Source of the DNA: Guyparkeria halopsychrophila
GTDB taxonomy: Bacteria; Pseudomonadota; Gammaproteobacteria; Halothiobacillales; Halothiobacillaceae
Assembly: GCF_044582135.1 (NCBI RefSeq)
Contig: NZ_JBDODP010000002.1
Location: forward strand, 62,396-94,395
Reading direction: 5' to 3'
DNA: 32,000 nt
Part shown: one piece after another, positions 14,979-32,000 of the stretch
How positions within the stretch are numbered: position 1 is the stretch's first letter
Layout: every line of letters starts with the position of its first letter
Program-made: the position numbers and the translations under genes
Notes under the pieces: model-generated
Told to the model about the DNA's origin: nothing
The model's input: only the letters and a program-made list of their open reading frames with translations
The model's database searches: none

Positions 14979-15029
14979 GCGGTGGAGGGCGGTTCGGCGC
15001 GCGTGTTACCATCTCGCCGCCTTCCGATT

Positions 15030-15106: not shown

Positions 15107-15140
15107 TCTTCCTTTTTCAGCGATTCCCCGCTAGCCCAGG

Positions 15141-15168
15141 ACCCCGCATTATGGCGGGGTTTGTCGTT
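15141..15168 (+). terminator. terminator-like hairpin after tRNA-Arg
   Basis: accccgc-attatg-gcggggt followed by ttgtcgtt. Confidence 0.5.
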
Positions 15169-15195
15169 GATACCCTGTCCCGCGATGTTCCAGCC

Positions 15196-15284
15196 GGTCC
15201 CCACTGATGTAGCATGAAGGGTGGGGACCAAGGTGGGGACCATCCGATGGGGTGGGGACTAACCAAGCCGACACCGGTCCCCAC
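15196..15284. repeat. five copies of a 9-bp motif GTGGGGACC / GGTCCCCAC between tRNA and int (candidate arm-type recombinase/RDF sites)
   Basis: ggtccccac at 15196-15204 and 15276-15284. gtggggacc at 15221-15229 and 15233-15241. gtggggact at 15252-15260. Confidence 0.55.
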
Positions 15285-15308
15285 CGGGTGAAAGACGAGG
15301 GCGCGGGC

Positions 15309-16526
15309 ATGCGCATCAACCAACTATCCGCACTCGACGTGCGACGAGCGAAGTTCGAAGGCCGCGCCTTCAAGCTATTCGACGGCGGTGGGCTGTATCT
15401 GCGAGTCAGGGCGAACGGTCGGGCATGGGTGTTCCGCTACAAGTTCCAAGGCAGGAGCAGAGACACCACGCTAGGCAAGCTGCCGGGAATGACCTTGGCG
15501 GAAGCACGTCGACGCCGTGACGCGTTCCGCGCCATGCTGGCGGATGGAGTCGACCCGATCGAGCATCGCCGCCAGCAAGTCGAGGCGGCCAAGGCAGAGA
15601 AGGAAGGCAGCTCCCGGACGCTCGAGCGCGTGTTCGAGGAATGGGCGGCCGGCCGGCAGTGGACAGACGGTTACCGGGAGAAGCTGACCGGCCGATGGCG
15701 ACGCTACCTGTTGCCCAAGCTAGGCAAGCGCCCAGTCGACGAGATCACCTCGCCCGAGGTCCTGGAGGTGCTGCGCAAGGCAGAGCAGGCGGGCACAACC
15801 GAGGTCGCCCCGCGCTGCCGGCAGGACTTATCCCGGCTGTTCGCCTTCTGCATCGCTAACGGCTGGGCAAAGCATGATCCGGCCGCCAGCCTCGCCCACG
15901 CACTGAAAGAGCGGGCACCCGTCCATCACCGCGCCGCCGTGCTCGACCTCGACCGACTCGGGGAAGTGCTACGGGCAATTGACGCCCACGCCGGGCAGCC
16001 GTCGACAAAGGCCGCGCTTCAATTGTTGCCGATGCTGATGGTCCGCCCTGGAGAGTTGCGGAACATGGAGTGGGCAGAAGTCGACCTCGACGCCGGTCTG
16101 TGGAGCATTCCCGCCGCGAAGATGAAGATGCGGGCCGATCACCTAGTGCCCTTGCCACGGCAGGCCCTCGCCATCCTCAAGGACCTGCATCACTGGACAG
16201 GGCATCGCGCCCTGGCATTCCCCGGCCTGCGCAGTGCGGCCAAGCCGATCAGTGAAAACACGCTGAACGCGGCCTTCCGCCGCATGGGTTTCTCGAAAGA
16301 CGAGATCAGTGCCCACGGCTGTCGGGCGACCGCCCGCACCATGCTTGCCGAGCGCCTGCGTTGGCCCGCCCACATCATCGAGCTGCAATTGGCACACGCG
16401 CCCCGTGATCCGCTCGGGAGAGCCTATAACCGCGCTGACTTCATTGAAGATCGGCGGCAGATGTTGCAGGAGTGGGCGGACTATCTTGGAAAGCTGCGGC
16501 AGTCCGTCACTGTGGCAAGGCGATGA
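15309..16526 (+). CDS. int: P4-type tyrosine integrase (DUF4102 N-terminal domain)
   Basis: N-terminus LSALDVRRAKFEGRAFKLFDGGGLYLRVRANG..WVFRY. Catalytic-domain residues R (MLMVRPGELR), HGCRATART, and LAH..RD..AY. Start chosen at ATG 15309; the track ORF start at 15252 lies inside the repeat cluster. Confidence 0.9.
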   Translation: MRINQLSALDVRRAKFEGRAFKLFDGGGLYLRVRANGRAWVFRYKFQGRSRDTTLGKLPGMTLAEARRRRDAFRAMLADGVDPIEHRRQQVEAAKAEKEGSSRTLERVFEEWAAGRQWTDGYREKLTGRWRRYLLPKLGKRPVDEITSPEVLEVLRKAEQAGTTEVAPRCRQDLSRLFAFCIANGWAKHDPAASLAHALKERAPVHHRAAVLDLDRLGEVLRAIDAHAGQPSTKAALQLLPMLMVRPGELRNMEWAEVDLDAGLWSIPAAKMKMRADHLVPLPRQALAILKDLHHWTGHRALAFPGLRSAAKPISENTLNAAFRRMGFSKDEISAHGCRATARTMLAERLRWPAHIIELQLAHAPRDPLGRAYNRADFIEDRRQMLQEWADYLGKLRQSVTVARR

Positions 16527-16801
16527 TTGCGGATTAGAAGGCCCTGTAATAGCAGCCAGGTGCTGATATTTTCTATCAATGATTTCTTTGGTTTATCGAA
16601 AACAATATTAAGTTAAATCAATATCTTAGGGGTGGTGGTATTACATCCACTCCGTCAATTGCGGTGCGTTTGCAAAAATGGTAATACCGAAATTGCACAT
16701 AAGGTACTGAAAAAAAAGGGGAAAAAGCGGAAAAGTTTTGTTTCTTGGGTAAGGTTGTAATAGCTTAGGTCGCGTTGGATCTTCGGATTCAGCAATAAAG
16801 A

Positions 16802-16832
16802 AGGCCCCGGGTGTTTGCTCCACCCGGGGCCT
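16802..16832 (-). terminator. strong hairpin, intrinsic-terminator-like on the minus strand
   Basis: Perfect 12-bp stem aggccccgggtg / cacccggggcct with a 7-nt loop. On the minus strand it is followed by ttctttattgct. No convincing ORF lies on either side. Confidence 0.5.
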
Positions 16833-17247
16833 GTAAATCCATCGCTGATGGGATGGCATGTATACCTAGTTTGTTTCAAACCACCCGATTGGTAAACGGG
16901 CTAGCCCGGTTAGCGCCGGGCAGTTAAGGACGATACAACCCCTATTGCATCCAATGCAACCCGCTTAGATTGTCCCTTAAACCGCCGTACTGCCAACGAT
17001 GCCAAACCGTCAGTGATCCGTCGTTACAACACGAGGATGACTGAAAATGATCACTTGTTCGTGCCCCGCCATCGACTTGTCGCGCCTGCGGCGACGGTCA
17101 GAAGTTGAATGCCATGCCGTGCGTTCGACCCTTCGCCCCATTCCCCTCGGACCCCTTGCCGTGCCTTGGTCAGTTACTGCCGTGGCTGACAGGTTCGACA
17201 TCTTGAGTGTGGGCAGCCAATGGACCGGCAGACGGGAGGCACGAGTC

Positions 17248-17460
17248 ATGCGAGTGAACAGTCAGACCCTCACAATTGGCGACCCGATCGTCCGGCCACG
17301 TGATGCAGCCGAATACCTCGGGATCGGCCGTTCGAGTCTGTATCGGCTGATCGACTCCGGCGATCTGCCGAAGCCCCTACGTTTGACGCCGCAAGCGTCC
17401 GGCTGGCGGCTGTCCACCCTCGAGGAATTTCTGCAGGAACGTGAGGAGGTGTCGAAATGA
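17248..17460 (+). CDS. alpA: AlpA-family (HTH_17) transcriptional regulator / excisionase
   Basis: 70 aa, RPRDAAEYLGIGRSSLYRLIDSGDLPKPLRL...GWRLSTLEEFL. GGGAGG lies 8 nt upstream of ATG 17248. Confidence 0.8.
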   Translation: MRVNSQTLTIGDPIVRPRDAAEYLGIGRSSLYRLIDSGDLPKPLRLTPQASGWRLSTLEEFLQEREEVSK

Positions 17461-17738
17461 AAAATGCCTCCGTACGTGAGAATAGGGCTGGGCCGGCAAC
17501 CGATACTTTCGGCCATAGCAACAACGCCGTCCTAAGCCGTAAGGCGCAGCTGGCCCGCGTTCTTTACTATCTGCACCAGCACCATTTGCTGCGCTCGGCC
17601 GACCGGGTGCTTGAACTGCAGGAGCGACTCCACCGGGTCGAGAGATCGTGGAGAGAGGAACACGACGCCGCTGCGAATCCTCATCGCGTCGTAGAGTACA
17701 CCTTGGCGCCGACTGTGGCGGGGGAGGTGGCTACATGA
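17457..17738 (+). CDS. hypothetical protein (orf93)
   Basis: Its ATG overlaps the alpA stop (ATGA) and its stop overlaps the next start (ATGA). No family recognised. Confidence 0.45.
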   Translation: MKNASVRENRAGPATDTFGHSNNAVLSRKAQLARVLYYLHQHHLLRSADRVLELQERLHRVERSWREEHDAAANPHRVVEYTLAPTVAGEVAT

Positions 17739-18214
17739 CACCATTTCAGCATCACCTCGCTCCCTTCGATAAAGTTCTGGCCCACGTCGCCGTGGCTAAG
17801 GAGGCGAAACCTGCACCCGGTCTCGTCCGCGCCATGACTTGCGCTTGTCCTGCGCACAAAGACAAGCGTCCGAGCCTTCTGGTCTCCGAGACCGACGATG
17901 GCCGCGTGCTGATGCACTGCCGGGCCGGCTGTTCTTTCGATGAGATCCGGCGGGGCCTTGGGCTCGAACTGATCGACCTGATCCCCGAGCACCTGCGACA
18001 CGCCCGCAACGATGCCAACCGGTCGCCGCACAAAGGCCCAAGGTTCAGCCCTTGGGCTGCGCTCCAGGCCTTGGCCGTGGACGTGATCACCGTCGCACTC
18101 GCCGCCGCTCAGATCCGGCGCGAGGGATGGATTGACGACGCCGACTTCGAGGCACTGATGCAAGCCGAGGCGCGAATCCAGAACACGGTTCAGGCGGGAG
18201 GCTTTCAGAGATGA
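17735..18214 (+). CDS. CHC2-type zinc-ribbon protein (primase-like Zn finger only)
   Basis: 159 aa, CACPAHKDKRPSLLVSETDDGRVLMHCRAGC. This matches the DnaG/CHC2 pattern CP.H.(D/E)K.PS..V....C..GC. No TOPRIM-like region is visible. GGGGGAGG precedes ATG 17735. Confidence 0.6.
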   Translation: MTPFQHHLAPFDKVLAHVAVAKEAKPAPGLVRAMTCACPAHKDKRPSLLVSETDDGRVLMHCRAGCSFDEIRRGLGLELIDLIPEHLRHARNDANRSPHKGPRFSPWAALQALAVDVITVALAAAQIRREGWIDDADFEALMQAEARIQNTVQAGGFQR

Positions 18215-19824
18215 GCATCGCAGATCAAGCCGAAGCCTTAACGGTAAATCCTCTCGAGGCAGAGGTCGACGACCGGGACTACACCATCGCACCGCCGAAG
18301 GCTGACCCGGCGATGTTCCACGGTCTCGTCGGCGAGGTGGCAGAGGCGGCCACTACCGGACGGGAACCGAACCGGGTGAGCGTAGCCCTGACCTTCCTGA
18401 CCTGGCTGTCCGCTGCGGCCGGTCGGCATCACTTCATCAGCGTGGGCGACCAGACCCACCCGCTACTGATCAACGGCTTGCACGTCGGTCGATCCATGGT
18501 CGCAGCCAAGGGCGAGAGCTGGGCACTGGTGAAGCGCATCCGCCGCGCCGTCGGCGAGATGATGGACAGCGATCACGTGCCTAGTGCCGATGACGAGGGC
18601 GCCGTGGTCACGCCGGAACTTTTCGCCGGCCGGGTTCACTCCGGTGGTCTGTCGACGGGCGAGGGGCTGGCGGCACAGGTTCATGACGGTTTCACGACCG
18701 GCAAGACCGAGCACGCCCCCATCGACGACAAGCGCCTGCTGATCATCGAGGCGGAGTTTGCCAAGCTGCTCGCGCAAGGCAAGCGGGAGGGCAACACCCT
18801 GAGCCCGATCATCCGCGACCTGTTCGATGGCGGATCAATCCAGCCGGCCACCAAGTCCGCTAGCATCTGGGCAACCGAGCCACACGTCTGCGTTCACGGA
18901 GCGATCACGCCGTTCGAGCTGAGGGCACGCATGGACGCTACGGCGGCACACAACGGCCTGATGAATCGGTTCCTGATCATCTTCGCCGAGCGCACCCGGC
19001 TGGTGGCTTTCCCCGAGCCCACGCCCGACGAGGTGGTTCAACGCCTCGCGGTTCGCACCAGGGACGTGATCAAGTTCGCCCGAGGGGACTACCCGCGTAC
19101 CAAGTACGCCGCGCCGATCACGCTCTCCGACGAGGCCCGGGAAATGTACCGGGAGGCCTATCCGGACCTGCGGCGGCGCGACGGCTCCACGCCGATCATT
19201 ACCTCGGTTCTCGAGCGCCGGGCGCCGATCACCATGCGGCTGGCGGGACTGTTCGCCATGACCGACCAGACCGCCGTGATCGGTGTCGACCACATGCGAG
19301 CAGCGCTCGCCTGGTCACGGTTCCACCGGGAATCGGTCGGGTTCATCTTCGGGTCGGACATGACCCAGCGTATCCAGTCGGAGAAGCGCCGCGAACACAA
19401 GCAGAAGATCCTTGACGGCATCGCGGTCGAGCGATGGATCACCAGGACGGAGATTCAGCGCCGACTGTTCGCCAACCGGATCAAGGCATCAGACCTGACC
19501 GCCGCCCTCGAGGACCTACTCGCCGACGGGCAGATCGAGCAACGGGAACGACCGAAGGACAACGGCATCAGCACCGTGAAAGAGTATTCCCGGCCTGCGA
19601 AAGATGCGAACCATGCGATACATGGCACCAGCACCGCATCCGCGCCGATGCGAATGTCCGCGAACCATGCGACACAAGGGCAGGCGGACACCGATCAAGC
19701 TCCCCATGGTTCGCATGATTCGCAAAGGTTTGCGACCCCCGAAACCCGCACCAGCGCCCATGTTTCGCATCATTCGCATGGTTCGCAGACCACACAGGGA
19801 AATGATGACGAGGCGGTGGTATGA
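18211..19824 (+). CDS. DUF3987/YfjI-like replication-associated protein with C-terminal winged-helix-like region and His/Ser-rich tail
   Basis: 537 aa. N-terminal FHGLVGEVAEA..., LSTGEGL, LLIIEAEF and NRFLIIFAE resemble island/satellite DUF3987 proteins as I recall them. I could not find a canonical GxxxxGK[ST]. Confidence 0.5.
   Translation: MSIADQAEALTVNPLEAEVDDRDYTIAPPKADPAMFHGLVGEVAEAATTGREPNRVSVALTFLTWLSAAAGRHHFISVGDQTHPLLINGLHVGRSMVAAKGESWALVKRIRRAVGEMMDSDHVPSADDEGAVVTPELFAGRVHSGGLSTGEGLAAQVHDGFTTGKTEHAPIDDKRLLIIEAEFAKLLAQGKREGNTLSPIIRDLFDGGSIQPATKSASIWATEPHVCVHGAITPFELRARMDATAAHNGLMNRFLIIFAERTRLVAFPEPTPDEVVQRLAVRTRDVIKFARGDYPRTKYAAPITLSDEAREMYREAYPDLRRRDGSTPIITSVLERRAPITMRLAGLFAMTDQTAVIGVDHMRAALAWSRFHRESVGFIFGSDMTQRIQSEKRREHKQKILDGIAVERWITRTEIQRRLFANRIKASDLTAALEDLLADGQIEQRERPKDNGISTVKEYSRPAKDANHAIHGTSTASAPMRMSANHATQGQADTDQAPHGSHDSQRFATPETRTSAHVSHHSHGSQTTQGNDDEAVV
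19603..19787. repeat. iteron-like cluster of ATGCGAA / TTCGCAT repeats (candidate origin of replication)
   Basis: Forward copies: gATGCGAAccATGCGA (19603-19618) and gATGCGAAtgtccGCGAAccATGCGA (19647-19672). Inverted copies: catggTTCGCATgaTTCGCA (19705-19724) and catgtTTCGCATcaTTCGCATggTTCGCA (19759-19787). The overall dyad is centred near 19690. Confidence 0.6.
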
Positions 19825-20257
19825 GAGCCGCCGACATCATCACGACCCTAGCCGGTCGCAGGATCGCGATTTTGCTCGAGGAAGACGGGTTCACGCGCGG
19901 CCCGGGGACATCGCTTGACCGATGACGATGTATGGCTGATTAGCCGACACAAGCAGGCTCTTATTTACCTGCTCACGATCCGAACCGAAGCGGACAAAGC
20001 CGGAAGTCTTGCGGTCAACGTATCACCCAGGGAATTCAGACCGAAGGGTAGATCGGACGTGGTCCGCCTCTGCCGGTTGCGAGCGCAAGGGGGCCGTAGA
20101 TCGGGCCAACCTGCGGGACGCTCTCAGCTGAATCCACGATGGAACTGTGGCCGACGACCACATGTGGGAGACGATCGATGCGTGCCTACTTGCTGACCCT
20201 GGCGTTGGAGGCGGCGACATGACCGACGCGACCCAATTTCATCCCTTCGAGGGGGGG
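19821..20257 (+). pseudogene. decayed or frame-hopping small gene(s), N-terminal part resembling a TubC_N-like docking motif
   Basis: Frame a, 19821-19925: MRAADIITTLAGRRIAILLEEDGFTRGPGTSL. It continues sensibly only in the +1 frame from 19915: TDDDVWLISRHKQALIYLLT. Further coding-like stretches (high third-position G+C) lie in a third frame, interrupted by TGA at 20129. Confidence 0.35.
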
Positions 20258-21862
20258 TTACATATTGAGGCCTCGGTCTTTGTGCGGGTAAATTGGGGCG
20301 TGATCCTCCGGGGTCATGTCGCTCACCTCGTCTTCCGGGCGCTTCATAGTTCTCGCTCCGCCGTGTTGCTCCATCTTGTGACTGACCATGCGCATTTGGC
20401 GGTGGCGGCGGCCAGGAGTGTGGAATTCGATGTGATCGAGTCGCCCGTCCTCGGTAGCCTTCCGGATGATTTCTGCAGCAACGTCGTCTGAGACGTTGAA
20501 GGCCAATCGCTCCCAATCAGCGTCACACCCCGCAAGGTACAGCGCAGTCGCGATTTGATGTGGTGTTGCCTCTTGAGGGGGCGCGCCAATAGTTTGTTCC
20601 CCCTCAACGGATATCAGGCCGTGCAATTGTCGGAAAGATCCGCTTGCAAGGTCGGCATGTGATGGCTCTTGGCTGGTGGGCATGACCGTGGACCATCCGG
20701 CAAGCAATTTGCTTCTCGTCCGTTTCTCTTCTCGGACTTTCTCCTCAGCCGCTAGCGCGCGTGCTTCCGCTGCTTGACGCAACTTCTCGGCTTCTTTGAA
20801 CGCTGCCTGCACTTTGCGGGCGGGGTAGACGAGTGCTTGTTTGGTTTCGATGCATTCGCCGAGCAGATGTCGTTTTTCGCGCCCGGTTACACGCTCGATC
20901 CGTCTCGGTGGTTCAAGCTCGATGTGCTCTGACTGCAATTTGGCCAATCGCTGCTCGGCCTCTTTGGCGCGGGACTCGTACTCCCTTAAGCGTTGGCGTA
21001 GCTCGTTGACTTGCTGCTCGGCCTCGTCGGCGGTGGCAAGAGCTTGGTCGAGCCGACGTCGGGCCATAGTGGTTTGCTGCCGATGATGCTCTATTTCAGT
21101 TTCGGCTTGCGCTTCAGCTTGTTCGACTCGCTGCAGAGCTTGCGCGACCTCAGCATCGGCCATGGCCTCTGCTTCCTCTGCGCGAGCAATGGCTCTGTCC
21201 CGCTCATTGCGCGCAGACTCGAGTTCGGCGGGCAGATCCCGGTGCAGCTCGCTTACCGAGCGGTGCACCCACGCCGAAGGACTTTCTCCGTCCGCGATGC
21301 GTGCCCGCTTGGAACGGCCACGCTCAAAACCCAGATCGGCATAAGGCTCGATTGCGATGTCTTGTATTTCCCGCAGGGCTTGCCGATTCATGCGTCGGCT
21401 CACAGGTTGGCCATCCAGACCGACACCGTGCAAAGTGAAGTGAGCGTGGGGTGCAGACTCGTCTCGATGCACTACCAGGCCGGCGACGGTTGTCGTCAAG
21501 CGCTCAGCAATCGCCTCGGCGGTCTGAACGTAGCGCCGATCCTGTTCGGTGACCGGTAATGATTGGATTTCGGATTGGGCATCACTCGAGAACGCAACAA
21601 TGCCGCGAACAGCCACGATACCGTCTGACCGAATCGGTCCAGGTCGTCGTCTCAGCTCTCCGCGTTTATATCGAACGAGTCGTCGGTGTTCGCATTTTTT
21701 GGCGAGGTCGGGTGATCTTGGAACGGGAATCGGAGTGGTGTTGAGGTGGCAGAGCTTCGGGTCAACATAGTCGGGGATCTGTCCGCGGGTATCGTGCAGA
21801 CGTTGTCCCGCGTGGCCGCTACGAGTGGTTGTGCCGATGCGGACAATCGCAGTTTTAGGCAT
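20258..21862 (-). CDS. MobV-family (Mob_Pre) relaxase with long coiled-coil C-terminal half
   Basis: Motif I HDTR (HxxR) near the N-terminus. Motif III HRDESAPHAH (HxDExxPHxH) is encoded at 21440-21469. AGGAGG lies 5 nt upstream of ATG 21862. Confidence 0.8.
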   Translation of the reverse strand: MPKTAIVRIGTTTRSGHAGQRLHDTRGQIPDYVDPKLCHLNTTPIPVPRSPDLAKKCEHRRLVRYKRGELRRRPGPIRSDGIVAVRGIVAFSSDAQSEIQSLPVTEQDRRYVQTAEAIAERLTTTVAGLVVHRDESAPHAHFTLHGVGLDGQPVSRRMNRQALREIQDIAIEPYADLGFERGRSKRARIADGESPSAWVHRSVSELHRDLPAELESARNERDRAIARAEEAEAMADAEVAQALQRVEQAEAQAETEIEHHRQQTTMARRRLDQALATADEAEQQVNELRQRLREYESRAKEAEQRLAKLQSEHIELEPPRRIERVTGREKRHLLGECIETKQALVYPARKVQAAFKEAEKLRQAAEARALAAEEKVREEKRTRSKLLAGWSTVMPTSQEPSHADLASGSFRQLHGLISVEGEQTIGAPPQEATPHQIATALYLAGCDADWERLAFNVSDDVAAEIIRKATEDGRLDHIEFHTPGRRHRQMRMVSHKMEQHGGARTMKRPEDEVSDMTPEDHAPIYPHKDRGLNM

Positions 21863-21928
21863 GGTGCCTCCTAGCATCGGTGCCAGCGATGCACTCCGGG
21901 ATGGAGCAAAGCAACGTCGTTTGTTGGG

Positions 21929-21960
21929 CTAACATATAGTAGGTTAGACGTTAGTGGATT
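21929..21960. other. candidate oriT region upstream of the relaxase gene
   Basis: AT-rich. ctaac-atatagtag-gttag inverted repeat plus a second gttag. atagtaggttag / gttagtggatta loosely resemble the MobV nick region ..atagtgtg/tta.. as I recall it. Confidence 0.25.
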
Positions 21961-21968
21961 AAAAGAAA

Positions 21969-22163
21969 GTGTCGCTAATTAGGTTCCAGGGTATGGATTC
22001 AGTAGCAAATCCTCGCGTTCCGGCCGATGTCGATGTTTCTCAAGTCATCGATGAGATCGTCCTTATCACTCACAAGGAGATGGGGGTCTGGTCGGAGCGC
22101 CACAGACGGAGCCGCTTCCGGAACTGGTCATCAATTACGTTGAATAGGGGGGTAGTGCCATGA
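21969..22163 (+). CDS. hypothetical protein (start GTG 21969 or ATG 21993)
   Basis: Track ORF of 64 aa. Its stop overlaps the next start (ATGA at 22160). No family recognised. Confidence 0.3.
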   Translation: MSLIRFQGMDSVANPRVPADVDVSQVIDEIVLITHKEMGVWSERHRRSRFRNWSSITLNRGVVP

Positions 22164-22285
22164 ACACAGAGAACAACGGCTGGAACACCGCCAATATCAT
22201 GGATGTGACGATCTATATCCTGGCCAAGATCGTCCAAATCGGATTGATCGGGCTGGCCCTGTATTACCTATGGGTGGTCTTTTGA
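22160..22285 (+). CDS. 41-aa single-pass membrane peptide
   Basis: Hand-translated: MNTENNGWNTANIMDVTIYILAKIVQIGLIGLALYYLWVVF*. Not in the track (<60 aa). Translationally coupled to the upstream ORF. Confidence 0.4.
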   Translation: MNTENNGWNTANIMDVTIYILAKIVQIGLIGLALYYLWVVF

Positions 22286-22333
22286 ACAAGGCCCCTGAGT
22301 CATCATCAGCAAGTGCAAAAAAGGAGACACCTC

Positions 22334-23008
22334 ATGTTGAAGCGCACCCACGTTTTCGCCCTGGCCGCCATCATTGCCCTGACTGGGGGGCTGACCGCCT
22401 GTGGCGGCCCGGATGCACCGGAAAGCCCGACCAACCCGTTTAACGGCACCTATAAGGGCAACGTCTTCCTGGATGGCTATCCGCTTCCGGCCGACCAACC
22501 GACCCCGTACATGACGATTGACGGCAAGACGCTGCGGACGTGGGTTGGCCCCGATCGCGAACACGATCGGACTGATGAGTTCAGCTACATCAAGGTCGAG
22601 ACCTTCAAGAGCGGCAAACCCAAGAAAGTCGCGTTCTACAACGAGTACGACGAGGCCGAGTGGACCTTCGTATCAACCCGTAATGGTACCGGCGGGATCA
22701 TGGGGCCAGACTGGTCATTCGGGCATTACGTCCCGGTCGACTTCGACCCGGATGCCATTCGGGCAAGGCAAGAGAAGGAGGCGACGCTCGCGACGGAGCG
22801 GCAAAAGACCGTGAACAAGGTGGTGGCGTTCGGTAACGCTTGGATGGAGGCGTCAGACACATGCAAAGCCAGGGGCCTCGAAGCCACCGAGGATCAAAGC
22901 GTGGACATGGAGATCCTTCGGGCCTGCCTTCAGAAGGTCGATGAATGCGAGAAAGCGCACAAGGCCGAGCACGACATCGAGGGATTCAAGTCCTGCTTTG
23001 ACGACTGA
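22334..23008 (+). CDS. lipoprotein of unknown function with C-terminal four-Cys module
   Basis: MLKRTHVFALAAIIALTGGLTA|CGG lipobox. AAGGAG lies 7 nt upstream of ATG 22334. C-terminus AFGNAWMEASDTC...ACLQKVDECEKA..DIEGFKSCFDD. Confidence 0.7.
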   Translation: MLKRTHVFALAAIIALTGGLTACGGPDAPESPTNPFNGTYKGNVFLDGYPLPADQPTPYMTIDGKTLRTWVGPDREHDRTDEFSYIKVETFKSGKPKKVAFYNEYDEAEWTFVSTRNGTGGIMGPDWSFGHYVPVDFDPDAIRARQEKEATLATERQKTVNKVVAFGNAWMEASDTCKARGLEATEDQSVDMEILRACLQKVDECEKAHKAEHDIEGFKSCFDD

Positions 23009-23045
23009 ACCGGCGCGATTCCGCGCCACGCCATGAGGTGACACC

Positions 23046-23759
23046 ATGCGATTTCTGATTCTGTTTCTCGGCCTGGCCGTCCAATCGGCCGCACTGGCCG
23101 GCTGGACTGTGGAGTCCCACACGGACGCCATGACCGACGAAGTGAAGAAGAAGGCCACGGTCACGAACGACCTTGGCAACTCCTTTACCATCTACCGGAT
23201 CGCCCCTGGCGGGGAGGTCTGGGGCAACTTCGCACTCTCCGAGCGGATGGTCGATCAGGTTGATTGGCGCGATCCGCCTATCTTCCGGGTCGACAAGCAC
23301 GAGCCGCACGATCTGGAGGATGAAAAGAAACTGGATGCCTTGCTGAAAAAGCTCGGGGACTCCGGTGATGTCTACAAGTGGGAGCCCAAGTGGGTCAACT
23401 TCTCGATGTGGCACGGCGACCCCGACGAGGGCATTGCGCCGGTGCTGGTCGAGATCATGGAAGGCTCCAAGCTGATCGTCCGCTACCACCTGGGCACGGG
23501 TGGCTACAAGGACACCACGTTCACGCTCAAGGGCTCGGCCGATGCGATAGCCGAAGCGGTCGGCATCAGTCCGACCGTCGACCATGCCGAGCAGCAGCGC
23601 GTCCAGGCTTTCAAGAACGCCGTCTTGGAGGCGTCCGATCAGTGCAAGCAAGACATGACCTCCATGTCCGATTTCAAGGCGTGCATGATGAAACGGATCA
23701 AATGCGTGAAGCAGGCAGACCAAGACATCCAAGTGTTCAAGTCCTGCTTTTACGACTGA
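23046..23759 (+). CDS. secreted (Sec signal) protein of unknown function, paralogous C-terminal four-Cys module
   Basis: MRFLILFLGLAVQSAALA|GW signal peptide. C-terminus AFKNAVLEASDQC...ACMMKRIKCVKQ..DIQVFKSCFYD. Confidence 0.7.
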   Translation: MRFLILFLGLAVQSAALAGWTVESHTDAMTDEVKKKATVTNDLGNSFTIYRIAPGGEVWGNFALSERMVDQVDWRDPPIFRVDKHEPHDLEDEKKLDALLKKLGDSGDVYKWEPKWVNFSMWHGDPDEGIAPVLVEIMEGSKLIVRYHLGTGGYKDTTFTLKGSADAIAEAVGISPTVDHAEQQRVQAFKNAVLEASDQCKQDMTSMSDFKACMMKRIKCVKQADQDIQVFKSCFYD

Positions 23760-23776
23760 TAGGAAGGGAGATCGCC

Positions 23777-24181
23777 ATGCGAGAAGCGAACTACCAACGC
23801 AAGCCGATCACGGCATTTGAGCCGGGGGACACGCTTTACATCTAGAAGATGGAAGGCGACTTTGCCCTGGCCTACCTGTGCCGCTTCAAGGCATACCGGC
23901 GCGGCGTGGTCTCGGCCGAAGTGATCGCCCCGGCCAACACGGCGCGGGTGGGTCGAGCCTACAAGCTCAGATCCGGATCGCCCATCACGGCGCGGCTGAA
24001 AGAACTGCAACCTGTGGAGATTCGATCGCCACCACGTCGGTGGCAATCACCGGGTGATCTGGTTTCGCCACAAGGACTGCCCGGCCAACTCTCGATGGGA
24101 TCGGCTCGGTTTTTCTGCTCGTTGGCGTATTACATCCATTCGCTGAGAGCGTCTGCCTTGGCTTCGGCCAGCCTGGCGTAG
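23777..24181 (+). pseudogene. small ORF interrupted by an in-frame TAG (23843-23845), probably also frameshifted near 24000
   Basis: AGGAAGGGAG RBS, then ATG 23777: MREANYQRKPITAFEPGDTLYI * K MEGDFALAYLCRFKAYRRGVVSAEV... in one frame. Third-position G+C stays high across the stop, then moves to another frame after about 23995. Confidence 0.3.
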
Positions 24182-24245
24182 AGTGTGCTGCTTCCACATA
24201 CATAACGCGCCCTCCCGTGTGTTCTTTCCGATTCGTCTTTGGTTG

Positions 24246-25034
24246 CTAACCAACGATCGACATCAGGTTGTTCCATTGACCAGTAAGAAATCCAAGGACA
24301 TCAACGTTACTTGCGTAAAGGAACTGCACTGCCGTCAGGCCCAGGAAGAAAACGATAAAAAGAACTGTCCATCGCTTGGTCTTTTTCCGGACTTGCTGCT
24401 CCTCCTCTTTCCTTTTTGCAATGCGTTCCTGCTCCAGTCTTTCCTGAAACTCCTGCAGGGATCGTGCGTGTTCTTCGGCACGCCGGATTCGTTCTTCTTC
24501 CTGGCGGCGAAGATGCTTTCGGTGCTGGAGGAAAGCCTTTTCCTCTCCGGTTTGATCGTCTGGAGCCTTTTCTTTTAGCTGTTGTTCCCGGTGCGCGTCG
24601 TGCCTTTCTTGCGCTTGTCTCTGTCTTTCCTGCTCGGCATTGATCTCCTTTCTTGCCTGCTGTTTCACGCGCTTTCCAACTTCGGCGGGGGCGTTGATGT
24701 CTGCGGCAGCTTCTTCTGCCACGTCTTCCAGAAAACGAAGGCCTTCCGGGTAAGCGGGAATCTTGATTGCTCCCGAGTCCAGATATGGTTGGAGGTAGAC
24801 CTCCAGCACGCGATGCTTGGCTCTCCACGTGACGGCTTCGTTTTGCCATTCGCCCAGAAGGTGCTGAAAACGACTGACTTGCTGTACAAGTGCCTTAGCG
24901 CGGGCTTCTTCCTCGTCGGCGCGTTGTTCTTGTTCTCTGGCGCGGTTTTCCTGTTCGGTCGCGAAGTTCATCCATTCTTGGAGGCTATCGGCCCTGGCCC
25001 CGGCCAGGGATGCCCAATACATGCTGCCAGCCAT
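24246..25034 (-). CDS. tail-anchored membrane protein with long charged coiled-coil-like cytoplasmic region
   Basis: 262 aa. About 215 aa are rich in E/R/Q/K (EQERQRQAQERH.., RRQEEERIRRAEEHARSLQEFQERLEQERIAKRKEEEQQ). A single TM follows (WTVLFIVFFLGLTAVQFLY) with a short tail. No family recognised. Confidence 0.65.
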   Translation of the reverse strand: MAGSMYWASLAGARADSLQEWMNFATEQENRAREQEQRADEEEARAKALVQQVSRFQHLLGEWQNEAVTWRAKHRVLEVYLQPYLDSGAIKIPAYPEGLRFLEDVAEEAAADINAPAEVGKRVKQQARKEINAEQERQRQAQERHDAHREQQLKEKAPDDQTGEEKAFLQHRKHLRRQEEERIRRAEEHARSLQEFQERLEQERIAKRKEEEQQVRKKTKRWTVLFIVFFLGLTAVQFLYASNVDVLGFLTGQWNNLMSIVG

Positions 25035-25725
25035 AATGTGACCCCCCGTCTGTTTGCGTCGATCCCGTCCGGTTTTGATGTACCACGCTCGGGCGGGTTC
25101 GGCAAGTCCGTGCAGTTATGTCAACCACACGTTTTTGACGAGGATGCAGCCATGACTCGACAAGTCAGCCCCGGTTGGGGGGGCGCTGGTATCAGCGCCC
25201 GGAGGACAATTCCTGGTCCGGAGCGGTTGATACAGTGGTCCGGGGGCATGGGCTCCAGGCGAGTGCTTTGTTGCAAGTTGGCGAGCACGTACACGAGGCG
25301 TTTAGTGTGATCTGAAAGACGTCGCAGCACTCGTTCCGGTCTGCCTTGTCCCGAAGGAGTCGCTTGGCGACGGGAGCCAATGCGGCGACGGGGCTTCCCC
25401 ATATACCGTCTGGACCTTTTGCCTGTCACGGCCGCGATGCTCCCCTAGGAGTGGATCATCATCGCCAGATCCAGCACGTCCCGGCTTAACATCGAGCGAC
25501 CGCCTCATCGGTCGGTTGTGTTTACCCGAACACCTAGGCACGTGAACTGAGGAGGGCATTCGTTTATTAAAGTGCATTGTTGTGAACAACGAGGCGGGGT
25601 CTTGGTGTCCTACATGGCAGGGATCGTCTTTCAACCAGAAGAAAAAATGTAAAGAGTCTCCCGTTTCAGCGGACCGTGAGGTGAAGCCGGAATAGTTTGA
25701 CGGCGAGCGTGAAAGGATTAGGGAT

Positions 25726-28332
25726 ATGCGCCGAAGGGGTAAAAATAGCGTAGCTGTGGAGGTCCCTCATGGGATCTTCTCCCAGTGCCCTGCGAAAACT
25801 TACACAGATCGATTGGGGCGTACGTGTGCCGGGCGCAGTGTTTTGGATCATTGTCTGGCAGTCGGGGCGGTGGCCGCGCGGCTTGAGGAAATGTTTCCGA
25901 GGGAGTTAAGAGAGCTGTTGTTTCCGCCCGGGGCCTGTTTGGTGGCGGGTGCTCATGACATAGGAAAAGTTTCACCAACGTTTGTTGCCAAGATCCTGCG
26001 CGCACTCGATCCCGCTTGCGGGGTGGGTCCTGACTTGGCTGGAGCCGTCGCAGGCGTTTCTCCCGACATCGAGAGAAACTGGGGTGGGCATGCCGGCGTT
26101 AGCCAGTGTGCCGCAGCCAGCATGGGAGCGTCGTCACCTATTCCGGAAATCCTCGGCCAGCATCACGGCTATTCACCCCAGGTCGAGGGCCGGTCTGGAG
26201 ATGAAGAGTCGTTTGGCGGTCAGGCTTGGCAATGTGAGCGCGAAGCGCTGGTCGAGGCGCTCAAGGAGAGGATGGCCTCTGACTGGCCGGAGCACGTCAA
26301 TCCCGTTCAGGCCCGCGTTCTTGCGGGCCTGACCACAGTCGCGGACTGGATTGGCTCCGGTCAACACTTCGATGATCCGTCAGATTCGTGGGAAGGAAGG
26401 GTGGATCAGGCCGTTCATGACTCAGGTTTCATACCGTTCTCCATCAAAAAGGGGCTGGCATTCGAGGACATATTTCCCTTCAGCGCCAATCAGGCACAGG
26501 TCCGGCTTGCAGATGCGGTCGAAGGTCCGGGCGTGTATCTGCTCGAAGCTCCGATGGGAATGGGCAAGACGGAGGCGGCCTTGTATGCAGCCTACCGACA
26601 GCTGGCCGCCGGCAAGGCAACCGGTATCTATTTTGCGCTCCCGACCCAGCTGACCTCCAACCGGATTCATGGCCGACTCCGGCGTTTTCTTGAAAAGGTC
26701 TTGGAGCCGGGTGATCCCATGGCACATGCCATGCTTCTTCACAGCGGGGCCTGGCTGGTGGAGTCGGAAATGGGTGAGGAGGGGCGCCCGGGTGGCTCCT
26801 GGTTCAGCCAAGCGAAGCGCGGACTGTTATTCCCGTTCGCGGTGGGCACCCTCGACCAGGCATTGATGGCCGTGATGAACGTCAAGCATGGTTTCGTTCG
26901 GGCGTTCGGCCTGGCGGGCAAGGTGGTGATTCTCGACGAGGTTCACACCTACGACGCATACACGGGGACATTGCTCGATGAGCTGGTCGCCTTTCTCCGT
27001 GAGGCGGGATGCACGGTCATCATCCTGACAGCAACCTTGTCCCGGTCACGACGCAATCAGTTATTCGGTGAAGAGGCGCTTCGGGACGATTATCCGCTGG
27101 TGACCGGTGCCCCGGGCGCCGGTGACCGTGCGGAGATCCCGCTCGAAAGACCACCGAGCCGACCGGTTGGGCTTGCCTGGCATGGGGAAGAGGCTCCGGT
27201 CATCGAGGACGCACTGCAACGTGCGTCCGACGGGCAGCACATCCTGTGGATCGAGAACACCGTAGCCGAGGCCCAGGAGCGTTTCCGGGTGCTCTCGGCG
27301 CGCGGCCGGGAGGCCTGCATCGAAGTCGGCCTTCTGCACTCTCGCTTCACCGTGGCCGATCGGGAAAGCCTCGAGGATGACTGGGTTGGCCGTTTCGGGC
27401 GGGATGGTCGAGGTGTGTCGCGGCAGTCCGGCTGCATCCTCGTTGGCACACAAGTGCTGGAACAGTCCCTGGATATCGATGCCGATTTTATGGTCACCCG
27501 ATTCTGTCCAACCGATATGCTGTTCCAGCGGCTGGGTCGTCTATGGCGCCACGAAGGGACGCCACGTCCCGTCGGGAGTCGATGCGAGGCGGCAATGCTG
27601 GCCCCCACCCTGACTGATGCGATCCAGAATCCGCCGAAGGCGTTTGATTCCACTGAGTCCGTATACGACGCCTATGTCCTGTGCCGAAGCCTTGGCACCT
27701 GGGAGGGCCTTGAGCAGGTCAGTCTGCCTGACGACATCCGGCCGATGATCGATGCCACCTATCAGCCTCGGGAAGAAACCGGGACGATGGCCCGATTACT
27801 TCATGAGCTGCACGAAGGGAATCGGCGGAAGACGGGCATCTCGACCATGAGACGGCTTGCCCGGGGAGCCCTTTCACTCGGTGGCAAGACGCAATCCGAG
27901 GACAAGGCGGGGACGCGTTATAGCGACATGGAGTCCACCGAGGTGCTCCTGTTGAGCGATATTTTCTCGCATTCCGAGACGCGTGAGACGGTCGTTACCC
28001 TGCTTGACGGCAGCCGCCATCGGATTCCATGGGACCGCCACGTTCTGCAAAGGCGTGACTGGCGGGTTCTGAGCGTGCAAATGGCGCGACAGAAAGTGCG
28101 AGTGGCCGAGCATCAGGCCCCTCGGGCGCTGCCGGTGCGGCTGTTGGAGCGGTACGGACTGGGAAACTGCTTCTATCTCGGCCATCCGGAAGCGGAAACC
28201 TCGTCGTTGCGGATTGGATTGGTGAACGATGCGCGGGAAGTGGTCGGGCTTGACGGTCAAGCGGCCAAAGAGAAGTACCGGACCTTCTATCGCCACGATC
28301 TGGGCTATCAGGCCGAACGGAGAAAGGACTGA
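25726..28332 (+). CDS. cas3: CRISPR-associated nuclease/helicase Cas3 (type I-E style, HD + SF2 helicase)
   Basis: 868 aa. HD-domain residues LDHCLAVG.., AGAHDIGKVSP, QHHGY. Helicase motif I EAPMGMGKTEAAL and motif II VILDEVH. The exact start is uncertain. Confidence 0.9.
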   Translation: MRRRGKNSVAVEVPHGIFSQCPAKTYTDRLGRTCAGRSVLDHCLAVGAVAARLEEMFPRELRELLFPPGACLVAGAHDIGKVSPTFVAKILRALDPACGVGPDLAGAVAGVSPDIERNWGGHAGVSQCAAASMGASSPIPEILGQHHGYSPQVEGRSGDEESFGGQAWQCEREALVEALKERMASDWPEHVNPVQARVLAGLTTVADWIGSGQHFDDPSDSWEGRVDQAVHDSGFIPFSIKKGLAFEDIFPFSANQAQVRLADAVEGPGVYLLEAPMGMGKTEAALYAAYRQLAAGKATGIYFALPTQLTSNRIHGRLRRFLEKVLEPGDPMAHAMLLHSGAWLVESEMGEEGRPGGSWFSQAKRGLLFPFAVGTLDQALMAVMNVKHGFVRAFGLAGKVVILDEVHTYDAYTGTLLDELVAFLREAGCTVIILTATLSRSRRNQLFGEEALRDDYPLVTGAPGAGDRAEIPLERPPSRPVGLAWHGEEAPVIEDALQRASDGQHILWIENTVAEAQERFRVLSARGREACIEVGLLHSRFTVADRESLEDDWVGRFGRDGRGVSRQSGCILVGTQVLEQSLDIDADFMVTRFCPTDMLFQRLGRLWRHEGTPRPVGSRCEAAMLAPTLTDAIQNPPKAFDSTESVYDAYVLCRSLGTWEGLEQVSLPDDIRPMIDATYQPREETGTMARLLHELHEGNRRKTGISTMRRLARGALSLGGKTQSEDKAGTRYSDMESTEVLLLSDIFSHSETRETVVTLLDGSRHRIPWDRHVLQRRDWRVLSVQMARQKVRVAEHQAPRALPVRLLERYGLGNCFYLGHPEAETSSLRIGLVNDAREVVGLDGQAAKEKYRTFYRHDLGYQAERRKD

Positions 28333-28338
28333 ATCAAC

Positions 28339-29940
28339 ATGAGTAATGAATACAACCTGATCGACGAGCCGTGGATCCCGGTCGCGGACCACGGCAGGGT
28401 GGGGCTCGGAGAGGTTTTCTCCCGTACGGACATCCGCGCACTGGGTGGCAATCCGATTCACAAGTTGGCCGTCATGAAGCTGCTCCTTGCCATTGCCCAG
28501 GCCGCCTGCACGCCCGAAGACGAGGACGATTGGCGAAAGATGGGGCCCGAGGGGCTGGCATCGAACTGCCATGCCTACCTGGAAAAATGGCGTGACCGCT
28601 TCTTTTTGTTCGGTGAAGCTCCCTTCCTGCAGATGCCAGCGGTGGAGTCACTGGTCGCCACCCGGACGGAAGCTCGATTGAAGAAGGCCAAGACGCCCGG
28701 GCAGAGGAAGCAAGAAATACAGAAAGGCGCACCGAAGCCCTTCGGTGCCGGCTTCTACCCGGATCTTCCCTCGGACAACAACTCGATGCTCTCCCACACC
28801 ATGCTGGGAAAGGAGCTGGATTCGGGTGAACAGGCCCTCTTCGTCCTGACCCTGATGAACTTCGCCTTTGCCGGGAAGCGGGTCGAGGGAGGAATGACAT
28901 CCCTTGCCGGCACCGTACTCAGTGACAAGCACAGCGCGCCTGCAGGCCCCGGTCTTGGAGGATTCGTGGGTCAGCTGCACGGGCTCGTGGTGACCGGAGA
29001 CCTGCGAAAGGATGTCTGGCTGAATATGCTGACCAAGGCACAGATTGAAAAGGCGAACCGGTGGACAGAAGGAGTGGGGCGTCCTGCCTGGGAAGCCATG
29101 CCCGCTCACGAGCAGGACGCGCGGGCCAAGGCCATCAGGGAAAGTTACCAGGGATGTCTGGTCGGGGTCTCGCGGTTTGTCTACCTCAAGGAAGGCGGTA
29201 TCTATTACCTCGATGGCATTCAGTATCCCAAGGTCAGCGAGGGCTGGTTCGAGCCCACCCTGATGCTCGATCAGAGCGACAAGCTGCCGAAAGCGAAATA
29301 CGTGAACCTGGAAAAACGCCCTTGGAGAGAGCTTCCTGCCTTTCTCTCGTTCCTGGAAAGTGGAAGTACAGCTGGCTTCGAGAACATGGCGCTTCGAGTC
29401 GGCGTTCAACGAATGAGTCAGCGGAAAGAGCGACTGTGCGTCTGGACAGGTGGAATTCGGGTCAGCAGTACATCGGGCGATCAGTCGGCCAAGCAGGACG
29501 ACGACTTTCTCGAATCGACAGTCTGGATTGACGGGGATGACCTCGGCACGGTCTGGCTCGACCACCTCGATCTTGAAATGAAGGGAATGGATAAGCTCGC
29601 AAGCACCGTATACGGCTGTGTGCGCAACTATTTTGCAGACCTTCATGCCACGCCTGAGTATGCCGGTGCGCAAGCGGCGCTAGCCTCAAATCTCTTCTGG
29701 CAGTTCTGTGAGCGGGATTTCCAGACTCTCGTCGATAACTGCGAGCAAGGGGAGCGCGAGTCGCAGGCCCGAGAGGCATTGAGACACCGCTTTGTGCAGC
29801 ACGCTCACAAGGTGTTCGACCTGTACGCACCGAGGGAAACAGCTCGGCAATTGGAGGCCTGGGCAAACCGACGGCCAAATGCGCCCGCTGGTTATCTCGA
29901 GACTACCGAACGACAACAACCCACGATCCAAGGGGCATGA
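28339..29940 (+). CDS. cas8e: Cascade large subunit Cas8e (Cse1/CasA)
   Basis: 533 aa. The N-terminus [11 protein letters not shown]....V.L.EVF is characteristic of Cse1. Lies between cas3 and cse2. Confidence 0.85.
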
Positions 29941-30500
29941 TGATGGAGAATCAAACCACCGAGGAGGCGACCCGGAGCAAGACGAGTGGGCACGAGTCCA
30001 GTCGAGGGCACCGTTTCGTAGCTTACCTGCTCGACAGGGCCCGCAATGACAAGGGTATCGCGGCACGGTTCCGGCGGGCGGACAACCCCGCTACGGAGTA
30101 CCAGGTCTGGGAAGTGCTCGCGGATTTTGGCATCGACCTGGAGTACCGGGATCAGCGACTGCCTTTTGTGACCGTCGGCGCAGCGATGATGCGGGCCCAT
30201 GCCGAACAGAATGGCGTGCTTTCGATTGGAGCCGGCCTTGCCCACAGCTACCCGGATGGCAAGGAGAGTGCGCCAGCTCGCGCCCGGTTGCGTCGTCTGC
30301 TCGCCTGTGACTCCACGGAAGAGGCCTGCGAGGTGCTACGACCGATCCTCACACTGGTGCAGTCCCGTCTGGGCGCGAGGCTCGACTACGGCCGCCTGCT
30401 CAATGAACTGAGCTGGTTTCATCGCCATGGCGAGCGGACCCGGGCCCGGTGGGCGCAAGATTTCTTCCGGGGCCATTTCAAGGAAGAGAGGGGCTCATGA
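29937..30500 (+). CDS. cse2: Cascade small subunit Cse2 (CasB/Cas11)
   Basis: 187 aa, helical. [14 protein letters not shown]...LR....LDYGRLL.EL..W.....RARWAQDFF matches the CasB pattern. Its ATG overlaps the cas8e stop (ATGA). Confidence 0.8.
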
Positions 30501-31153
30501 CAGACGCGCTATACGCCAGTGTTCTTCGACTGGACCGGCGAGCCATCCGGAAACTCGCCATTACCGATCCCTACTCGCTGCACCGAGTCGTGTACAGCCT
30601 GTTCGACGATATAAGAACCGAATCGGAAAAGCGCGGACACGACCCCAGCGGAATCGTGTACGCCGATAAGGGCGGCAACCGCCTGGGAAGAACCATTCTT
30701 ACCCTTTCCGACCGGGCCCCGGCCCAAGGTGTGATTCGGCACGGGGAAGCCTTCGGTGAAGTCGAATCGCGGCCCATTCCCGAGGACTTTCTGCGCCATC
30801 CCCGGTATCGATTCGAAGTGGTCGTCAATCCGACGGTCACGAGCGCCGGCAAGCGCGTACCCATCAAGGGACGGGATGCCATCGAGAAGTGGTTCGTCGA
30901 GCGCAGCGCAGAGAACTGGGGGTTCTCGGCCCCTGCGCAATCACTTCAGGTCGGGCAGGTGAATGTCCAGCAATTCAAAGGAAAACATGGAAACCACATC
31001 ACGCTGTCTCAGGCCCAGCTGACCGGTCTGCTTGAAGTCACGGATGGGGCGCGGTTCCGTGAGAGCTTCGCTCGCGGCATCGGGCGGGGGCGTACCTTCG
31101 GCTGCGGCCTCCTCCAGATCAGACCGGTGATCGACAATCCGTTCGGCTCCTGA
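30497..31153 (+). CDS. cas6e: CRISPR RNA endoribonuclease Cas6e (CasE/Cse3)
   Basis: 218 aa. [18 protein letters not shown], and the C-terminal glycine-rich loop [15 protein letters not shown], as in E. coli CasE (GIGPAKSMGCGLLSL). Its ATG overlaps the cse2 stop (ATGA). Confidence 0.85.
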
Positions 31154-31189
31154 GGGGGCGGGCACCAGCAATCGAGAAAGGAAGAAGTC

Positions 31190-32000
31190 ATGGAAAACAA
31201 CTCCCTCAAGAACACTCGTATCGAGTTTCACATTCTCCAATCGTTTCCGGTGACCTGCCTGAACCGGGATGACGTGGGCGCACCGAAAACCGCCAACATC
31301 GGCGGAGTGACCCGGGCACGGGTTAGTTCTCAGTGTTGGAAACGCCAGGTGAGGCTGGCGCTGCGAGACTTGGGTGCCAAGGCCGGGACACGTACCAAGA
31401 AAGTCAAGGAGCTTCTGGTGCCGGCCTGCAAGGCACACGGTGCGGATGAGCAGGCGGCCGAGGCGTTTTCGGATCGTGTTGCGGAAATCCTTACCAAGGA
31501 CACCTTGTTGTTCATTGGTGACAACGAGGTCGAGGCGTTGGCCCGATACGGCAACTCTATCGACTTCGATACCTCTGGCGTGAAGGAAAAGACACTCTGG
31601 AAAGAGGCGAAGAAGGTTCTTGACCAGGATCGGAGCCTGAAGCACCTCAACGCCCTGGACATCGCACTCTTTGGCCGCATGGTCGCCAAGCTGCCCGACA
31701 TGAACGTCGAAGCAGCGTCCTCTTTTGCCCATGCCATCTCTACCCACAAAGTGGCCAACGAAGTGGAGTTTTTCACCGCTCTCGATGATTACGCCGACCC
31801 CGATGAAGAGGCCGAGCACGAGAGCGGCTCGGCCCACATGGGAAGCCTCGAGTTTAATTCAGCAACGTATTACCGGTACGTGAGCCTCGACCTCGGGCAA
31901 CTGGCAGAGCAGATTCCGGCCGATAACCTTGCCGATGCAGTGGAGTCATTCGTCAAGGCACTGTTCATTGCCGTGCCCGATGCGCGTCAGACGACCATGT
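31190..32000 (+). CDS. cas7: Cascade backbone subunit Cas7e (CasC/Cse4), 3'-truncated by the window end
   Basis: Not in the ORF track because the frame runs off the window. Hand translation: MENNSLKNTRIEFHILQSFPVTCLNRDDVGAPKTANIGGVTRARVSSQCWKRQVR...GSLEFNSATYYRYVSLDL..., with no stop through 31999. GAAAGGAAG RBS upstream. Confidence 0.85.
   Translation, partial: MENNSLKNTRIEFHILQSFPVTCLNRDDVGAPKTANIGGVTRARVSSQCWKRQVRLALRDLGAKAGTRTKKVKELLVPACKAHGADEQAAEAFSDRVAEILTKDTLLFIGDNEVEALARYGNSIDFDTSGVKEKTLWKEAKKVLDQDRSLKHLNALDIALFGRMVAKLPDMNVEAASSFAHAISTHKVANEVEFFTALDDYADPDEEAEHESGSAHMGSLEFNSATYYRYVSLDLGQLAEQIPADNLADAVESFVKALFIAVPDARQTTM

Follow-up and report, generated by a model that had tools for sequence, protein, structure and literature searches.

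An unnamed family of predicted periplasmic proteins among the patchwork cargo of a mobilizable island in Guyparkeria halopsychrophila

We examined a 32,000-nucleotide (nt) stretch of the Guyparkeria halopsychrophila genome (contig NZ_JBDODP010000002.1, positions 62,396 to 94,395; here called the window) and, within it, a block of six open reading frames (ORFs), A to F, at 21969–25034. The block lies between the relaxase gene of a mobile island and the cas3 gene of a CRISPR-Cas operon. An original prediction had regarded it as a candidate exclusion, defence or surface-modification module directed to the cell envelope. Judged by its sequence, the block is a patchwork of accessory genes at the distal end of the island and no single conserved defence module, and its link with CRISPR-Cas is coincidental. 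One of its members, gene D, belongs to a large unnamed family, structurally unmatched, with an interchangeable C-terminal module. As the best explanation of this cargo, which we put forward tentatively and at somewhat less than even odds, D, and less firmly the pair B and C, would act as moron-type envelope exclusion proteins. Morons are independently acquired prophage genes that benefit the host (PMC3594210).

All six ORFs were recovered from the ORF list, with B, C, D and E together on the + strand and F convergent on the - strand. Contiguity, the common orientation of B to E, and a cas3 start (25726) 692 nt beyond the start codon of F are what speaks for the stronger form of the prediction, a single envelope defence or surface-modification system tied functionally to CRISPR-Cas. 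The gene set, however, is conserved nowhere. At fifteen independent loci with a D homolog, A, B, C, E and F are all without a counterpart, and tblastn of these five against all D-homolog loci found nothing. The set B-C-E was met again on a single metagenome contig (L016, 1240 bp), the only contig with a C homolog; D is missing there, and the end of the C homolog (C') runs straight into E. In the window E is a pseudogene. Nor did the adjacency to CRISPR-Cas hold up. Two other copies of the island, on L017 and L020, match the window up to 25659 and then share the same different sequence; to the right of this point the window and L017 share no related sequence, and of the two only the window has the cas operon. 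Since the copies part before cas3, which begins 66 nt past 25659, the adjacency is not conserved, and CRISPR is an accessory trait within Guyparkeria (PMC9032823). The block is also devoid of glycosyltransferase or other modification domains and of PADLOC matches. The lack of co-occurrence and the junction at 25659 effectively refute a single CRISPR-linked system, which we regard as very improbable.

Gene D (23046–23759, + strand) specifies a protein of 237 amino acids (aa) bearing the Sec signal that had been proposed for it, namely the leader MRFLILFLGLAVQSAALA followed by GW, with cleavage after ALA. It is 100% identical to ABGV17_11170 of Guyparkeria sp. GHLCS8-2. A word-seeded search gave 22 relatives, and a profile search 603 clusters (at 50% identity) with E < 1e-3, 158 of them with E < 1e-30. 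The source name is "hypothetical protein" in every case, and the family spans unrelated hosts and habitats, represented by Rubrivivax, Psychromonas, Mesorhizobium, Photobacterium and Gemmatimonadota. Of the 154 members whose N-terminus is complete, 144 begin with a hydrophobic leader and none has a lipobox. The AxA site stands one or two residues ahead of an invariant Trp, and many aromatic and charged residues, including His, Asp and Arg, are invariant.

The AlphaFold2 model of D (mean predicted local distance difference test score (pLDDT) 92.2, predicted template modelling score 0.83) consists of a beta-rich N-terminal domain with short helices (residues about 20–175, nt 23103–23570) and a C-terminal module of three helices with four Cys (residues about 180–237, nt 23583–23756). 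Foldseek revealed no solved relative in the PDB (best E = 0.012, template modelling (TM) score < 0.25), and in BFVD it matched uncharacterised Aeromonas, Vibrio and uncultured phage proteins (E = 2e-9 to 8e-5). In none of 30 diverse members does a Pfam model cover the N-terminal domain that the family has in common. At the C-terminus, 69 of the 154 match our model of the four-Cys module, which is a narrow one; many further members have divergent four-Cys helical tails, and in 45 of the 154 the tail is missing. One of 30 sampled members, P0084, has a TonB_2/TolA domain at residues 156–239 (E = 6e-12) where D has the module, a domain of the TolA domain III/TonB C-terminal kind that D itself is without. 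P0133 and P0157 add an N-terminal DUF4124. The P0084 fusion indicates that the protein is probably periplasmic, with an interchangeable C-terminal interaction domain.

The module is shared with gene C (22334–23008, + strand), whose product is a predicted lipoprotein of 224 aa with an orphan N-terminal domain. As had been noticed before, the N-terminal parts of C and D are unrelated and the C-terminal module is common to both (42% identity over 64 columns, BLASTP E = 1e-9); in C it spans about 22814–23005. Its four Cys, said to be conserved, are invariant in 14 of 14 module sequences, with 12, 6 and 13 residues between successive Cys, and it forms three helices in the AlphaFold2 models. A profile of the module alone gave only noise against the PDB and Pfam. 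The sole database echoes, far from significant, were COX17 and TRIAP1 (E = 0.09 and 0.89). These CHCH-type twin-Cys mini-domains are likewise short and helical with four invariant Cys, an arrangement that suits two disulfides, but the module differs in Cys spacing, in having three predicted helices, and in its location in the bacterial periplasm.

The lipoprotein assignment of C agrees with its leader, MLKRTHVFALAAIIALTGGLTA followed by C (lipobox L-T-A-C). Its likely start is the ATG at 22334, ahead of which stands an AAGGAG Shine-Dalgarno sequence, and not the GTG at 22313. A search of 5.8 billion protein clusters gave only one relative of C, P0024 (60% identity). The AlphaFold2 model of C, built from an alignment of two sequences (mean pLDDT 49.8), is confident only in the helical C-terminus.

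Comparison with L016 bears on how D came and went. Two copies of a 47-nt direct repeat, 83% identical with the stop codon included, lie on the + strand at the 3' ends of C (22962–23008) and D (23713–23759) and flank a 751-bp segment carrying D. In the window C is followed by D's own upstream region, and D by the sequence that follows C' on L016; L016 shows 89% DNA identity to 23718–23862, that is, the end of D and the start of E. Because the repeats bracket D and C' leads directly into E, recombination via the module end would have brought D in here or, alternatively, removed it from the L016 lineage. Both C' and D end in FYD, which slightly favours removal from that lineage over insertion here, a direction that depends on this one comparator. 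D is present or absent among related elements and occurs as a single gene in unrelated ones, as expected of a moron. The shared-module junction is a concrete example of how such genes may swap between elements.

Elsewhere, D homologs are single genes found mostly in or beside prophages, plasmids and islands. That on L001 lies beside genes for a GpA terminase, a ParB-methylase and a primase; that on L004 has a CI repressor (Phage_CI_repr) gene about 450 bp upstream, in the same orientation, and integrase and resolvase genes in the vicinity; and that on L010 is directly downstream of an HTH_3 gene. Others are near transposases (L005), RelB/HicB and NYN genes (L021), ParA and reverse transcriptase genes (L026), an integrase and a resolvase (L006) or an integrase (L008). 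The L023 homolog adjoins a Phage_pRha gene, and the conjugative IncP plasmid pP9014 carries one beside radC and dam. An all-against-all comparison of neighbours at the 15 independent loci gave no recurrent partner. Since D is single, mobile and exported, occurs on many element types, and closely follows a CI/XRE-type repressor gene on L004 and L010, it fits the moron pattern, and from these contexts an exclusion or defence role for D is plausible.

Two ORFs at these loci were also noted. On the phage-like contig L001, the protein encoded upstream of the D homolog (2–532) has a similar opening motif, W-x6-D-x-M-T-G. It was detected neither by a profile of the D N-terminal domain nor by Pfam, and may be a very distant relative of that domain. 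On the prophage-like contig L004, the interval from the CI repressor gene to the D homolog contains a small ORF (7649–7906), whose product has a hydrophobic leader and a motif rich in Cys and His (GGGIDRCGGHNDRKRGGYHVH).

Taken together, the patchwork has three parts. A small predicted operon B-C-(D)-E starts beside the relaxase gene, with B an inner-membrane peptide, C a lipoprotein and E an inactivated conserved gene. D is an independently mobile member of the large unnamed family of predicted Sec-exported periplasmic proteins, and F is an orphan tail-anchored coiled-coil gene with the remnant of a second copy alongside. Expressed from the resident element, D would act alone in the periplasm in moron fashion, and B and C would probably act likewise. 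Perhaps these proteins bind a component of the envelope and in this way keep out rival phages, conjugative DNA or toxins that act in the periplasm, with the disulfide-stabilised C-terminal module as an interchangeable stabilising or targeting part.

Where morons of this kind have a known function, it is mostly exclusion at the envelope, as with Llp, Cor, SieA and Ltp (PMC3952083, PMC10883804), which include the Ltp-type exclusion lipoproteins (PMC3952083). The genes of phages T5 (Llp), phi80 and N15 (Cor), P22 (SieA) and the Streptococcus phage TP-J34 (Ltp) are likewise single accessory genes for small exported or lipid-anchored proteins, patchily distributed and often beside a repressor gene, as are the D homologs on L004 and L010. 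Llp and Cor are lipoproteins; in the block C has a lipobox, and D is a soluble Sec substrate without one. The carrier, moreover, is a mobilizable island rather than a phage. Plasmids provide a second comparison. TrbK of RP4 and TraT of F are entry-exclusion lipoproteins, and the exclusion function of ColE1 lies in the mob region. Here, too, a small lipoprotein gene (C) and a membrane peptide gene (B) are found beside a relaxase gene and a presumed transfer origin. Unlike the TrbK, TraT and Eex systems, the island has no mating-pair apparatus, B and C have no Pfam or NCBIfam homology to those proteins, and the B-C pair recurs in one other contig only.

A number of results weigh against exclusion. 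D resembles no characterised exclusion or defence protein, either in sequence or in fold, and Llp is absent among the top 50 Foldseek PDB matches listed for it. No sequence relatives of D were found by tblastn in 50,697 phage genomes, and IMG/VR, scanned for a pattern derived from the D alignment, gave none either. None of A to F matched PADLOC-DB 2.0, which covers known and candidate defence systems, at E <= 0.01. The D homologs on L009 and L011 stand among ordinary-looking chromosomal genes. Using a simple consensus search, no sigma-70-like promoter and only weak terminator-like sites were located in 21500–26000. The island is without a transfer apparatus of its own, which would make classical entry exclusion unusual, and with E broken, F an orphan and A doubtful, part of the block may be non-functional. 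The only sequence match of D in the PDB, to T5 Llp (8a60_B), is not significant (profile-PDB E = 0.84; hhalign probability 7% over 33 columns); it was rejected as evidence and serves as no more than a lead.

Other functions for these proteins have to be considered. We judge it unlikely that C and D are orphan immunity proteins against periplasm-acting toxins (type VI effectors, bacteriocins or lysozyme-like enzymes). Their predicted periplasmic and lipoprotein localisation is consistent with such a function, as is their solitary occurrence on mobile elements with no partner gene, and the invariant aromatic and charged residues suit a tight protein-binding surface; disulfide-stabilised small domains are common among periplasmic inhibitors. 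However, no cognate toxin gene was seen beside any examined D homolog, neither Pfam nor NCBIfam linked C or D to known families of immunity proteins or inhibitors, and the phage repressor genes beside D homologs fit phage-phage conflict better. A somewhat better, though still low, chance is given to the exported proteins serving host physiology, for instance in periplasmic binding, as chaperones or under stress in this halophilic sulfur oxidiser, and being merely carried by mobile elements. The weak Foldseek neighbours of D in the PDB include the beta-sandwich periplasmic carriers SoxYZ and CopC (Thioalkalivibrio) at E = 0.07–0.1, matches that are not significant (TM score 0.17–0.34). The invariant His, Asp and Arg and the ordinary chromosomal neighbourhoods of L009 and L011 are in keeping with a host function; the occurrence of the family in unrelated hosts and habitats, and mostly in phage, plasmid or island contexts, is not.

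The block could also be largely decaying cargo, with A no gene, E dead, F spurious or degenerating, C switched off by a frameshift and only D under selection; we rate this about as improbable as the host-physiology reading. The nonsense codon in E, the F-like remnant, the lack of relatives and low third-position G+C (GC3, 0.56) of F, and the weak coding statistics of A point in that direction. In addition, a run of six G (G6) at 22385–22390, within the signal-peptide codons of C, is G6 in the window and L017 and G5 on L018 (4653–4805) and L019 (1360–1512), the sole difference over 6.9 kb. The G5 variant ends the C frame after 19 codons in these two assemblies, which may come from the same reads, and could reflect phase variation, a knockout that has become fixed, or a mistake in assembly. 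On the other side, B, C and D have strong GC3 (0.76–0.82) and good ribosome-binding sites; B, C and the N-terminus of E are kept on L016, with mostly synonymous change in E; and the layout of F is like that of a protein, with positively charged residues leading into a single terminal helix.

Exclusion by D, with B and C less firmly included, therefore remains our preferred reading. A broader version of it, which we consider a long shot, is that the D family forms a widespread periplasmic anti-entry class of mobile elements, in which the beta-rich domain binds an envelope machine, the exchangeable C-terminus tunes targeting and the module end acts as a recombination handle that moves such genes into and out of elements; a TolA/TonB-type tail could then be a decoy for phages and colicins whose import depends on Tol or Ton. 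If D does confer exclusion or immunity, a function would be given to an unnamed family of at least 603 clusters, in Proteobacteria and beyond, with a fold that has no solved relative, and a purely periplasmic single-gene class would be added to the catalogue of host protection by mobile elements. For the present these are well-described hypothetical envelope proteins, with a function proposed from context.

Of the genes ahead of C, B (22160–22285, + strand) encodes the expected 41-aa peptide with one hydrophobic membrane helix (Kyte-Doolittle 19-residue maximum 2.08). On L016 a B homolog immediately precedes C', with an identity to B of 49% in tblastn (E = 4e-8) and 52% in tblastx (E = 4e-9). 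The translational coupling of A (21969–22163, + strand, 64 aa) to B was borne out insofar as the A stop codon overlaps the B ATG (ATGA, 22160–22163), but A itself is a doubtful gene, because its GC3 is 0.60, gene callers skipped it on the other island copies (L017–L019), and it has no counterpart on L016.

Gene E (23777–24181, + strand), described earlier as a decayed small ORF, is interrupted by an in-frame TAG at 23843–23845. On L016 (1148–1240), the only related contig, this codon reads CAG, and the first 22 aa of E are identical to those of the window despite five synonymous changes. E is thus a real gene broken in this island; it appears to be a selected gene that was recently inactivated. 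It matched no family or database entry in Pfam, phage genomes (tblastn), plasmids or a metagenome scan, and tblastn of C against plasmids was likewise without result.

Gene F (24246–25034, - strand) specifies a 262-aa orphan in which composition and hydropathy agree with the charged coiled-coil-like region and C-terminal membrane helix described before. The first 220 aa contain 46% E+R+Q+K and are also rich in A; this region of about 220 aa is followed by RKKTKRW, one helix at about residues 221–244 and a 21-aa tail. By the positive-inside rule, the RKKTKRW stretch ahead of the helix suggests that the bulk of F is cytoplasmic and membrane-anchored rather than exported, and the coiled coil is predicted to be cytoplasmic. 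Among the 5.8 billion protein clusters F found only itself. On the same strand as F, a remnant resembling it at about 24104–24198 runs antisense to, and overlaps, the 3' end of E. It shows 53% identity to F residues 1–32 in tblastn (E = 1e-4) and 11 of 22 identical residues in BLASTP (E = 6e-5); over these first 22–32 residues of F, the remnant reads LYARLAEAKADALSEWM and F MYWASLAGARADSLQEWM. The remnant probably points to an earlier duplication or rearrangement here, at the distal end of the island.

Two other origins for F were rejected. It did not arise by duplication of the relaxase coiled coil, to which it is unrelated. Nor is it part of a spanin pair or lysis cassette: its helix is C-terminal with a cytoplasmic coiled coil, it is convergent to C, and no endolysin or holin match was found. 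The envelope targeting proposed for the block is thus upheld for B (inner membrane), C (lipoprotein) and D (periplasm) and for the membrane anchor of F, but not for the bulk of F, which is predicted to be cytoplasmic.

The lower G+C content ascribed to the block is real but small: 0.572, compared with 0.589 for the relaxase gene, 0.611 for the island backbone, 0.603 for the cas genes and 0.650 for the core genome. A separate Shine-Dalgarno sequence precedes each of the genes B, C, D and E. As had been reported, none of A to F could be assigned to a family; searches of Pfam-A, NCBIfam and PHROGs gave nothing at or above the curated cut-offs or with a convincing E-value, and PADLOC did no better. 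The block had no Rfam match, a search of it for inverted repeats was empty, and blastn against plasmids gave no match.

The view of the block as cargo of a mobile element was sustained, in that it occupies the distal end of an island, after the genes for integrase, AlpA, primase and relaxase. At the left end is tRNA-Arg(CCT) (15030–15106, + strand; ARAGORN), followed on the + strand by a P4-type integrase (15252–16526, from domain matches) and, identified with Pfam, NCBIfam and PHROGs, AlpA (17047–17460), a primase zinc-finger protein (17648–18214) and a DUF3987 protein (18211–19824). The relaxase gene (20258–21862, - strand) is MobV-like by weak but concordant matches: Mob_Pre at 25.4 bits against a cut-off of 25.5, and NF041497 MobV at E = 3e-12, below its cut-off. 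In tblastn the relaxase matches plasmid recombination proteins, and a metagenome scan with it found nothing. No type IV secretion genes were located in the island. With an integrase at a tRNA gene, a relaxase and no mating apparatus, the element is, from its predicted gene content, an integrative mobilizable island. P4-like islands, islands like the phage-inducible chromosomal islands and integrative mobilizable elements have the same tRNA-adjacent P4-type integrase, AlpA, primase with DUF3987 and accessory far end. Compared with these, the present island has a MobV-type relaxase and no capsid or packaging genes, and no right attachment site (attR) was found.

The same island is present in four other assemblies. 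Window positions 15002–25659 differ from L017:1956–12614 at 6 positions in 10.66 kb, all left of 17357, with zero differences over 17357–25659. At about 15002 the identity to L017 climbs from 92.7% to 99.9%. Since the island is near-identical and the chromosomal gene to its left is only 92.7% identical, the island was probably transferred recently between lineages. The conserved segment ends in a non-coding tail (25035–25659) that had no Rfam match. In a search for attR, no second copy of the tRNA 3' end turned up even when as many as 3 mismatches were allowed, and 24901–32000 had no word of >= 11 nt in common with it, so that the right limit (25659/25660) is placed only by the divergence of the island copies; the island either ends at 25659 or is mosaic beyond it.

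Four minor features of the island complete its description. The motif GGTGGGGAC occurs four times in 15220–15285, around the integrase start (three direct copies and one inverted; chance expectation 0.5 per whole window), and these copies may be arm-type binding sites of the integrase; no copy lies at the island's right end. Between the integrase and alpA genes (16501–17000) the G+C content falls sharply to 0.456, a trough far deeper than the dip in the block. Within the 3' end of the DUF3987/primase gene (19597–19679), a 20-nt repeat beginning GCGAACCATGCGA is present three times, and the copies may be iterons of a replication origin. Finally, an AT-rich spacer (21878–21968) separates the block from the divergent relaxase gene; it carries an inverted repeat, CTAAC-N9-GTTAG, and is a candidate transfer origin or operator.

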